This document shows positions 20,579 through 21,499 of a stretch of 64,000 nucleotides of DNA, one piece after another. The position numbers were made by a program, and so were the translations under genes. The notes below the pieces were generated by a model, which had not been told where the DNA came from, did no database searches, and saw nothing but the letters and a program-made list of their open reading frames with translations. Source of the stretch: Escherichia coli (GTDB taxonomy: Bacteria; Pseudomonadota; Gammaproteobacteria; Enterobacterales; Enterobacteriaceae); NCBI RefSeq assembly GCF_045037415.1, contig NZ_CP173438.1; one strand, given 5' to 3'. Within the stretch, counting starts at the first letter, position 1; each line of letters starts with the position of its first letter.

Positions 20579-21499
20579 ATGAGTTCTACTATGGCACTGG
20601 AAAAAGGAATTGCAGAGTTAGTCGAAGAGTTTATCGCTGCGGGTCGCCCCTCATCGCGCCAACAAAGTATTACGCAGCGCAGAGAGGGCTATATCGCCAG
20701 CGCTGTCCTTGCGGGTGAGACAGAAACGCGGGTAGATATTCAGACTATCGAACTTGAAGGGATGACCTTACGAATAGTGTCACCGCTGAATGCCCCGACA
20801 TTACTCCCGACGATAATTTATTACTACGGTGGCTGTTTTGTTAGCGGCGGGTTCGCAACTCACGACAACCAGCTGCGCCAGTTAGCCTATTACGGGCAAT
20901 GTCGGGTTATTGCCGTCCAGTATCGGCTGGCACCGGAACATACTTTCCCCGCCGCCCATGATGATGCACAACGAGGTGCAGAATTAGTCCGGCAACACGC
21001 CGAACGACTCGGCGTTGATAAACAACGAATAACTCTTGCCGGTGACAGTGCGGGAGGGCATCTGGCGCTGGTAACTGCTTTGCGATTGAAGCGTGCTGGC
21101 GAGTGGCAACCAGCACAACTCATCTTAATTTATCCTATGCTTGATGCGACTGCGCATTTCGAAAGCTACATACGCAATGGTCACGATTACATCATCACAC
21201 GCGACACTTTACTGAGCGGCTTTGAGATGTACCTGCCAGGCATTGAACGCAGGCATCCTGAAGCCAGCCCTATTTGGCGCAATGATTTCAATGGCTTGCC
21301 ACCTGTACATATCATTACCGCTGAATACGACCCACTTTGCGATGAAGGTGAAGCGTTGTATCACCGCATGACAGGGCAAGGAGTGCAATGCACCTGCCAA
21401 CGCTACCTTGGCGTTATCCACGGATTTTTTCAGTTAGGTGGTATCAGTGAGGCTGCGCGATCGGCGTTACGGGATGTTGCCTGGAGAGCGGGAAGGTAA
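20579..21499 (+). CDS. Alpha/beta-hydrolase esterase, Aes/hormone-sensitive-lipase-like (start 20579 or 20591)
   Basis: GDSAGG nucleophile motif, YGGCF oxyanion-hole-like motif; about 305 aa. Confidence 0.8.
   Translation: MSSTMALEKGIAELVEEFIAAGRPSSRQQSITQRREGYIASAVLAGETETRVDIQTIELEGMTLRIVSPLNAPTLLPTIIYYYGGCFVSGGFATHDNQLRQLAYYGQCRVIAVQYRLAPEHTFPAAHDDAQRGAELVRQHAERLGVDKQRITLAGDSAGGHLALVTALRLKRAGEWQPAQLILIYPMLDATAHFESYIRNGHDYIITRDTLLSGFEMYLPGIERRHPEASPIWRNDFNGLPPVHIITAEYDPLCDEGEALYHRMTGQGVQCTCQRYLGVIHGFFQLGGISEAARSALRDVAWRAGR

Follow-up and report, generated by a model that had tools for sequence, protein, structure and literature searches.

How does a gene come to be carried by about half of the genomes of a species and be missing from its reference strain: by arriving in some lineages, or by leaving others? 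This question is raised by an esterase gene in a 64,000-nt stretch of Escherichia coli DNA (contig NZ_CP173438.1; the whole stretch is called the window here), which encodes a protein identical to WP_001385591.1 and lies between a divergent higBA-2 toxin–antitoxin pair and the convergent gene fabY (yiiD). An earlier examination of the letters of the window (hereafter the sequence-only reading) had taken it for strain-specific cargo of a toxin–antitoxin islet. We reach a different answer: it is very probable that the gene is the ortholog of Salmonella nlhH, ancestral at its position, controlled by the SOS response, and that deletion has removed it from K-12 and from about half of E. coli. The family of enzymes is an ordinary one, the annotation of the gene predates this work, and in Salmonella the ortholog has a place among the listed SOS genes; what is new here is the deletion history, a fixed exchange of His for Tyr at residue 79 (H79Y), and the breadth of the association with LexA boxes across Gammaproteobacteria.

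To place the protein in a family, we compared it with sequence profiles and solved structures. The Pfam profile PF07859 (Abhydrolase_3) matches at E 5.6e-69, with 232.5 bits against a cut-off of 25, and covers profile positions 1–209 of 210. Solved esterases related to hormone-sensitive lipase (the HSL family) match at E ≤ 1e-3 in 126 PDB sequences, of which the best is PestE (2YH2, E 3.4e-51), and in the PestE alignment the nucleophile segment LAGDSAGGHLA, the acid segment EYDPLCDEG and the histidine motif GVIHGFF are all aligned. The protein thus has the full-length profile match, the GDSAG elbow and the Asp and His of the triad that mark family IV, and departs from it at the HGGG oxyanion motif, which reads Y-G-G-C in E. 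coli with both oxyanion glycines kept. The third Gly of this motif is Cys across the whole orthogroup (HGGC in 128 of 128 among the matches listed), and the departure is variation inside the family, not a ground for exclusion from the fold. Judged by these matches, the open reading frame (ORF) is a real HSL-family (family IV) serine esterase, predicted to be a carboxylesterase. It has no signal peptide, is presumably cytoplasmic, and would form its oxyanion hole from the backbone of Gly80–Gly81 and Ala154. The alpha/beta hydrolase with a GDSAGG motif that had been read from the letters is therefore confirmed, and the label Aes-like that went with it holds at the level of the HSL/Aes-type family but not as orthology, since the NCBIfam Aes equivalog (NF007547) gives 142 bits against a cut-off of 389. 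Two further names proved not transferable: LipP1-family HSL (NF058653), the top NCBIfam model, reaches 238.9 bits against an equivalog cut-off of 350, and chloramphenicol hydrolase (NF033149) reaches 163 bits against one of 500.

Within E. coli, we scored presence at a coverage of at least 80% and found the esterase in 2636 of 5426 complete genomes (48.6%), in two main allele bands, with 990 genomes at 99% or more and 1649 at 95–99%. In K-12 (NC_000913.3), the spacer between fabY and yiiE contains no annotated gene, and tblastn detected no remnant of the esterase, the toxin or the antitoxin in it. The sequence-only reading was thus right that K-12 lacks the gene, and the comparison of genomes at this locus that it had proposed, as a way to tell core from accessory, returns an accessory gene, not a core one. 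Horizontal acquisition together with the toxin–antitoxin islet, as strain-specific cargo at the yiiD–yiiE junction, would account for this absence from K-12 and from 51% of complete genomes. It would also account for the near-perfect co-occurrence of the esterase with the higBA-2 pair, which is found in 2635 genomes, and for the AT-rich DNA to the left of the gene.

Outside E. coli, however, the same gene is found at the same position and in the same orientation. We surveyed species-representative genomes with a motif-based scan, counting sequences of at least 66% identity as orthologs, and found that fdhE and/or fabY adjoins the ortholog in 57 of 68 enterobacterial loci, while the order fdhE> est> <fabY is kept in all 30 loci that hold both flanking genes (both counts among the matches listed). 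The fdhE–fabY interval is home to the ortholog in Salmonella, Citrobacter, Enterobacter, Klebsiella, Kluyvera, Raoultella, Kosakonia and others, with orthologs of 74–83% identity filling this slot in Salmonella, Enterobacter hormaechei, Citrobacter braakii, a Citrobacter-like genome and Klebsiella aerogenes. In Enterobacter and K. aerogenes it is the sole gene between fdhE and fabY. The same divergent HigB-2/HigA-2 pair recurs in 8 other species representatives among the matches listed, at 69–74% and 85–88% identity; these belong to Pseudocitrobacter, Klebsiella, Enterobacter, Salmonella and Citrobacter (for example Pseudocitrobacter faecalis, K. spallanzanii, E. cloacae, S. enterica arizonae, C. 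werkmanii and C. portucalensis).

The composition and divergence of the gene also speak against recent arrival. Its guanine-plus-cytosine (GC) content of 0.51–0.53 is that of fabY and dtd, and between the window, which is of phylogroup B2, and the B1 strain O111:H8 its synonymous divergence (pS) is 0.065, where its neighbours range over 0.05–0.16 (fdhE 0.052, dtd 0.059, yihY 0.114, fabY 0.144). The ratio of nonsynonymous to synonymous divergence (pN/pS) over the same comparison is 0.13, from 6 nonsynonymous and 14 synonymous differences. At the level of sequence comparison, this GC content and divergence are the signature of vertical descent with purifying selection. A site occupied across Enterobacteriaceae, native GC and core-like divergence are not the marks of islet cargo, and the mobility genes that do lie near the esterase in Z1002, 23AR0303 and O157:H7 are later insertions next to it. 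Given these observations and the deletion scars described below, we regard acquisition as cargo as highly improbable; of the earlier claim, the accessory status in E. coli stands and the cargo status does not. The esterase would rather be ancestral at the fdhE–fabY position in Enterobacteriaceae, often beside a divergent higBA-2 module.

How the gene left is recorded in strains that keep different parts of the locus. In 23AR0303 and Z1002, a 2.4-kb insert lies between the esterase stop codon and fabY and contains genes for a 304-residue 'transposase' and a 297-residue hypothetical protein, together with an AT-rich tail of 475 bp. This insert opens with a second copy of the ∼105-bp repeat whose first copy is listed in Table 1. 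In O157:H7 the insert is kept and higBA-2 and the esterase are gone, and the junction is a hybrid repeat, flanked on the left as copy 1 is and on the right as copy 2 is. Of the element, K-12 has just the 475-bp tail, which abuts the stop codon of fabY. The tail is present in 3056 of the 5426 genomes, and occurs together with the esterase in at least about 270. Because of the hybrid repeat junction in O157:H7 and the element tail in K-12, these sequences indicate that the esterase-negative state of both is derived, by repeat-mediated deletion. In some lineages the transposase-bearing element would have inserted between the esterase and fabY, bringing the second copy of the repeat with it; recombination between the two copies would then have deleted the block of higBA-2 and esterase, giving the O157:H7 state, and further loss would have left the 475-bp tail of the K-12 state.

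Some details of these pieces can be added. The repeat is itself structured (AACTCCT...GCGGCActaTGCCGC...AGGAGTT), and it is also seen at 4082–4184 of locus L134 and at ∼2027–2184 of locus L135. In Z1002 (locus L133, 7269–10030) an IS200C transposase gene (tnpA) is also found between the esterase and fabY. The tail in K-12 is unannotated and occupies 4078439–4078913 of NC_000913.3 (6440–6914 of locus L002); in other strains PGAP annotates a small hypothetical protein in the tail, and the stretch has a 35-codon ORF preceded by GGAAGGAGG.

To ask how the gene is controlled, we searched its upstream region for operators. A palindrome of the LexA (SOS) type, AACTGTACATTCATACAGCA, lies immediately upstream of the coding sequence, and its core, CTGT-N8-ACAG, occurs nowhere else in the window. 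Reference operators (sulA, recA, lexA, umuD, uvrA/ssb, recN, dinI) were extracted from NC_000913.3, and AACTGTACATTCATACAGCA equals the K-12 sulA operator at 17 of 20 bases. A position weight matrix was built from nine K-12 operators, with which real sites score 14.0–26.1 bits when left out one at a time; AACTGTACATTCATACAGCA scores 21.4 bits, and the runner-up in the window 12.7 bits. Of 65 orthologs (identity of at least 66%; among the matches listed), 49 have a site of at least 14 bits between −32 and −37, and the box is present also in orthologs of species without a toxin–antitoxin module at the locus. Strong boxes are likewise found upstream of 22 of 40 distant homologs of ∼50% identity (among the matches listed), in Aeromonas, Vibrio including V. 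cholerae, Shewanella and Pseudoalteromonas. In at least 120 loci (1.02 Mb), the 130 nt upstream of the esterase contain 77 sites, where ∼0.2 would be expected, and the rest of the sequence has 13. The gene therefore combines a consensus operator at its promoter with conservation of that operator in orthologous promoters, as a member of the LexA regulon does. Since this operator, of the high-affinity type, would cover both the −10 hexamer and the probable start site of transcription (predicted near 20564), the esterase should stay repressed as long as the cell is undamaged, and the SOS response should induce it.

These predictions are in accordance with functional data from Salmonella. Nalidixic acid raises the expression of STM14_4846 (nlhH) 15.1-fold in S. 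Typhimurium 14028s, and this gene has one SOS box, 13 bp from its ATG and with a heterology index of 7.63, which it shares with the divergent STM14_4847 (higB-2), induced 8-fold (PMC8072944). An nlhH::gfp fusion was LexA/RecA-dependent, and ON cells were absent from lexA(Ind-) and recA backgrounds (PMC8072944). That STM14_4846 is the ortholog is secure because three items agree: the supplement lists it with a length of 930 nt, the product is given as a 'putative acetyl esterase', and the published fusion primer encodes ...WRVVSPSTGKMT*, which is the C-terminus of the Salmonella ortholog P0112 (PMC8072944). SOS control was established by experiment for the Salmonella ortholog and, by analogy and with good support, would extend to the E. 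coli gene.

One could still suppose that the palindrome is not a LexA operator of the esterase, serving instead another regulator or the divergent higBA-2 operon only, and that the esterase is constitutive or otherwise controlled. The E. coli LexA site is a predicted one, and the box in Salmonella has been assigned to nlhH and higB-2 alike. However, in Enterobacter hormaechei (locus L005) and K. aerogenes (locus L011) the box keeps its distance from the esterase ATG where there is no toxin–antitoxin module to be served, and in the window it abuts the −10 of the esterase and is 194 nt from the ATG of the toxin. Distant homologs with different neighbours have boxes upstream as well, and the nlhH fusion itself depended on LexA and RecA. 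For these reasons, we find it quite improbable that the palindrome is not a LexA operator of the esterase.

The E. coli gene differs from its orthologs in two places that may bear on activity and expression. At codon 79, E. coli has Tyr for the His of the HGG motif. All 128 of 128 non-E. coli members among the matches listed have His (H-G-G-C-F), while Tyr is found in every E. coli allele examined (the B2 window, O111:H8, Z1002, 23AR0303 and all six protein clusters), and among the top 120 clusters it is carried solely by the six from E. coli. The His version of the surrounding 61-mer has an exact match in 0 of 2638 E. coli genomes. The second place is the ribosome-binding site, where other genera have the Shine–Dalgarno sequence AAAGG(A/G) 7–9 nt before the ATG and E. 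coli has AAAATGAG.

The same upstream alignment helps to settle where the protein begins. The sequence-only reading had hesitated between GTG 20516, ATG 20579 and ATG 20591. Aligned orthologs place the start at ATG 20591, because 18 of 18 from other genera begin M-(A/V/T)-L-E-(K/S/N)-G-I at this point and the PGAP annotation of the identical strain SK1144 starts there as well. ATG 20579 would be an E. coli-specific mutation within the ancestral ribosome-binding site, since AAAATGAG has replaced AAAGG(A/G), and GTG 20516 lies upstream of the predicted promoter.

An exchange at an otherwise invariant motif position, unique to the species, and a changed Shine–Dalgarno sequence could be taken to mean that the esterase is a decaying relic in E. 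coli, its oxyanion loop disabled and its ribosome-binding site degraded, inactive or barely made, and for that reason lost without cost in half of the species. This would also fit the repeated or widespread loss of the gene and its faster evolution, with a median ortholog identity of 74% against 90–94% for its neighbours. Yet H79Y is the sole E. coli change among 77 columns that are invariant in 63 orthologs (among the matches listed), and standing alone it argues that the esterase is not generally decaying. A pN/pS of 0.13 between the B2 and B1 alleles does not suit a relic either, the dominant protein cluster is full length with 2495 members, truncated or fused variants are rare, and neither the triad nor the GDSAGG motif nor the LexA box is damaged. 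In HSL enzymes the oxyanion hole uses the backbone amides of two Gly and not the His side chain (for example PMC5070724), so the activity of the Tyr79 enzyme may persist. We consider it unlikely, on balance, that the gene is a relic. According to the reading that we prefer, of a functional gene lost by deletion, the E. coli lineage would have fixed H79Y and weakened its Shine–Dalgarno sequence without the gene thereby becoming a pseudogene, and the two changes together probably alter or lower activity and expression.

Several points weigh against an ancestral, SOS-controlled esterase lost by deletion. A CTGT-N8-ACAG is expected by chance 0.73 times in one 64-kb sequence, so that it is conservation and the Salmonella data that carry the LexA call. 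A promoter scan of 20000–21800 called no consensus sigma-70 promoter, and the −35 is weak. No Escherichia species besides E. coli was among the matches listed, so that the finding of H79Y and the reading of vertical descent cover a single species of the genus. The direction of some structural steps, insertion versus excision of the 2.4-kb element, is drawn from few genomes, and no mutagenesis data for the His of HGG were found in the literature searched.

If the reading holds, it changes how the SOS response of E. coli is seen. The canonical regulon was drawn up in K-12, a strain that has lost the esterase gene by deletion, and about half of natural E. coli, including B2 extraintestinal pathogenic and B1 Shiga toxin-producing lineages, probably express a DNA-damage-inducible esterase that K-12 could not reveal. 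The locus is a worked example of accessory status by loss, made visible by outgroup synteny and the scars of repeat-mediated deletion, and it cautions that genes absent from K-12 are not automatically acquired cargo. Nature also provides, in the fixed H79Y, a test of what the conserved His does in the HGG oxyanion motif.

The association of this esterase family with LexA boxes could reach further, and suggests that the SOS response has a biochemical branch still to be characterised. We put forward tentatively, at somewhat less than an even chance, that the HGGC-type HSL esterase is an ancient and widely conserved member of the LexA regulon of Gammaproteobacteria (Enterobacteriaceae, Aeromonas, Vibrio, Shewanella, Pseudoalteromonas). 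If so, hydrolysis of small-molecule or lipid esters would be a selected part of the response to DNA damage, for example in the detoxification of genotoxic esters or in metabolite remodelling during SOS. In E. coli, nature would then have run an experiment in loss, in which H79Y was fixed, translation was weakened and deletion followed in about half of the lineages, and the deletion in K-12 would explain why the gene is absent from the classical SOS lists. Papers on the Vibrio SOS regulon mention no esterase, lipase or hydrolase, and a conserved operon partner of the homologs, looked for in Aeromonas and Vibrio, was not found. In V. cholerae ATCC 14035 the homolog (locus L081, 934–1947) has a strong LexA box 83 nt upstream and is surrounded by small ORFs on the same strand, a ParE/Phd pair and a GNAT gene among them, in an arrangement that resembles a cassette array.

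The positions of the esterase features and of its neighbours are collected in Table 1.

Table 1. Features of the esterase locus, in coordinates of the window
Feature	Position	Strand	Basis or remark
Direct repeat, about 85–105 bp	19681..19785		Just 3′ of higA-2; second copy 3′ of the esterase in strains with the 2.4-kb element
HigA-2/NadS-family helix-turn-helix (HTH) antitoxin gene	19760..20050	-	NCBIfam NadS 60.7 bits, cut-off 60; PDB HigA-2 E 1.8e-8
HigB-2-like toxin gene	20051..20362	-	PDB HigB-2 E 1.6e-19, residues 2–99 (V. cholerae HigB-2 structures)
Conserved upstream block TTTGCGAGGCGCTTTCCAGAT, 21 nt	20484..20504		Kept across genera with or without the toxin–antitoxin module
Weak candidate −35 hexamer TATCCA	20529..20534	+	17 bp upstream of the −10; placed by spacing only
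Putative −10 hexamer TATAAA	20552..20557	+	Abuts the LexA box; TATAA kept at ≥90% in a 31-sequence upstream alignment
Predicted LexA (SOS) operator AACTGTACATTCATACAGCA	20557..20576		CTGT-N8-ACAG core 20559–20574; overlaps the −10/+1 region; ends 14 nt upstream of the ATG
Residual Shine–Dalgarno TGAG	20580..20583	+	Upstream alignment; the E. coli change also makes the in-frame ATG 20579
Esterase coding sequence, 302 residues	20591..21499	+	Pfam, NCBIfam and PDB matches; PGAP; N-terminus kept in 18 orthologs
Codon 79, TAC (Tyr) for His of the HGG motif	20825..20827	+	E. coli reads Y-Y-Y-G-G-C-F
GDSAGG nucleophile elbow, residues 151–156	21041..21058	+	Aligned to PestE GDSAGG; invariant in orthologs
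Catalytic Ser153 codon (predicted)	21047..21049	+	Within GDSAGG
Catalytic Asp247 codon (predicted), in EYDPLCDEG	21329..21331	+	Aligned to DPLRDEG of solved HSL esterases; invariant in orthologs
Catalytic His277 codon (predicted), in GVIHGFF	21419..21421	+	Aligned to solved enzymes; invariant in orthologs
Perfect 13-bp inverted repeat, 3-nt loop	21517..21545		In the 63-bp esterase–fabY spacer; candidate weak bidirectional terminator
fabY (yiiD)	21563..22504	-	Convergent with the esterase; right-hand anchor of synteny

The esterase gene is monocistronic, and the assignments of its promoter and terminator rest on conservation and folding only. The conserved block TTTGCGAGGCGCTTTCCAGAT lies about 90–105 nt upstream of its ATG and has no Rfam match; over 18700–21800, an Rfam scan gave a single sub-threshold chance match, outside the esterase gene. 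On the left, 228 bp separate the esterase from the toxin–antitoxin pair, which does contain a HigB homolog divergent from the esterase, as had been noticed from the letters alone. The pair has the toxin-first order of HigB-2/HigA-2, the toxin stop directly abutting the antitoxin start (20051/20050). A perfect palindrome, GTACGTCA-t-TGACGTAC, at 20400–20416, ∼40 nt upstream of the higB-2-like start codon, is likely the operator of the antitoxin.

The fdhE–fabY interval is a hotspot of toxin–antitoxin modules, and its content varies in Salmonella and Citrobacter (loci L003 and L004, 5180–5796 and 7016–7770; loci L007 and L009). Genomes of these two genera have a PIN/ribbon-helix-helix (RHH) pair of VapBC-like type upstream of the esterase and a HigB_toxin/HTH pair of sehAB type downstream, both unrelated to the HigB-2 pair of E. 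coli. We considered the toxin of the window as a homolog of the HigB_toxin (sehA) that lies 3′ of the Salmonella esterase and found no homology, so that the two modules are independent.

On the right, the sequence-only reading had proposed a bidirectional terminator shared with yiiD. The hairpin in the spacer is real: it folds better than shuffled sequences (z −2.6 and −2.8 on the two strands) and has the same sequence in O111:H8. It is AT-rich and lacks a flanking T-run beyond the stem, and a terminator scan of 20000–21800 did not call it, so that it stands as no more than a candidate terminator.

Farther out, there is a lineage-specific insertion at the locus, and it is not the esterase. At 16710–18323, a DUF6708 protein (282 residues) and a 246-residue protein without a family are encoded in foreign-looking DNA with a GC content of 0.35–0.43, between two RHH/CopG genes (yiiF-like, 16178–16420; yiiE-like, 18508–18753); this pair is absent from K-12 and O111:H8. 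In the other direction, collinearity with K-12 (locus L002) and O111:H8 (locus L132) stops just past yihX, from 24516 onward. There, the window has an aldose 1-epimerase, two transporters of the major facilitator superfamily and a Zn-dependent alcohol dehydrogenase where K-12 has csqR-yihV-yihU-yihT of the sulfoquinovose cluster, and 29746–31925 has only paralog-level similarity (about 66%).

Among known systems, the closest to the E. coli esterase is Salmonella nlhH (STM14_4846 in 14028s, STM4032 in LT2), with 76% amino acid identity, the same fdhE-est-fabY locus, a LexA box 13–14 nt from the ATG in both and, in 14028s, a divergent higB-2 gene of 103 codons. Unlike E. coli, with its Tyr79 and weak Shine–Dalgarno sequence, Salmonella keeps the His in HGGC and a good AAAGG; its protein is 7 residues longer at the C-terminus, and an extra HigB/HTH module (sehAB) lies between its esterase and fabY. 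One retracted paper, cited here for gene order only, calls the Salmonella esterase a 'single unrelated gene' flanked by the sehAB and sehCD modules (PMC3868539). The solved esterases PestE of Pyrobaculum calidifontis (2YH2), Est8 (4YPV) and EH1AB1 (6I8D) match over residues 36–297 at E about 1e-51 with all catalytic motifs, but have the canonical HGGG where the orthogroup has HGGC (YGGC in E. coli), and their genomic context and regulation are unrelated. E. coli Aes (YbaC; PDB 4KRX/3GA7) shares Abhydrolase_3, the HSL fold, the GDSAG motif and the Ser-Asp-His triad and is a distant paralog (E 1e-29 to the PDB entries of Aes), differing in that it is core and at another locus; Aes is not known to be LexA-regulated. 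In its control, the esterase is best compared with sulA, umuDC, dinI and recN. Although its product has no known link to DNA repair, and K-12, on which the definition of the E. coli SOS regulon rests, lacks the gene, it has the same class of operator, near the start codon and overlapping the promoter, with the box at −34 to −15 from the ATG, where that of sulA lies at −42 to −23 from its own.

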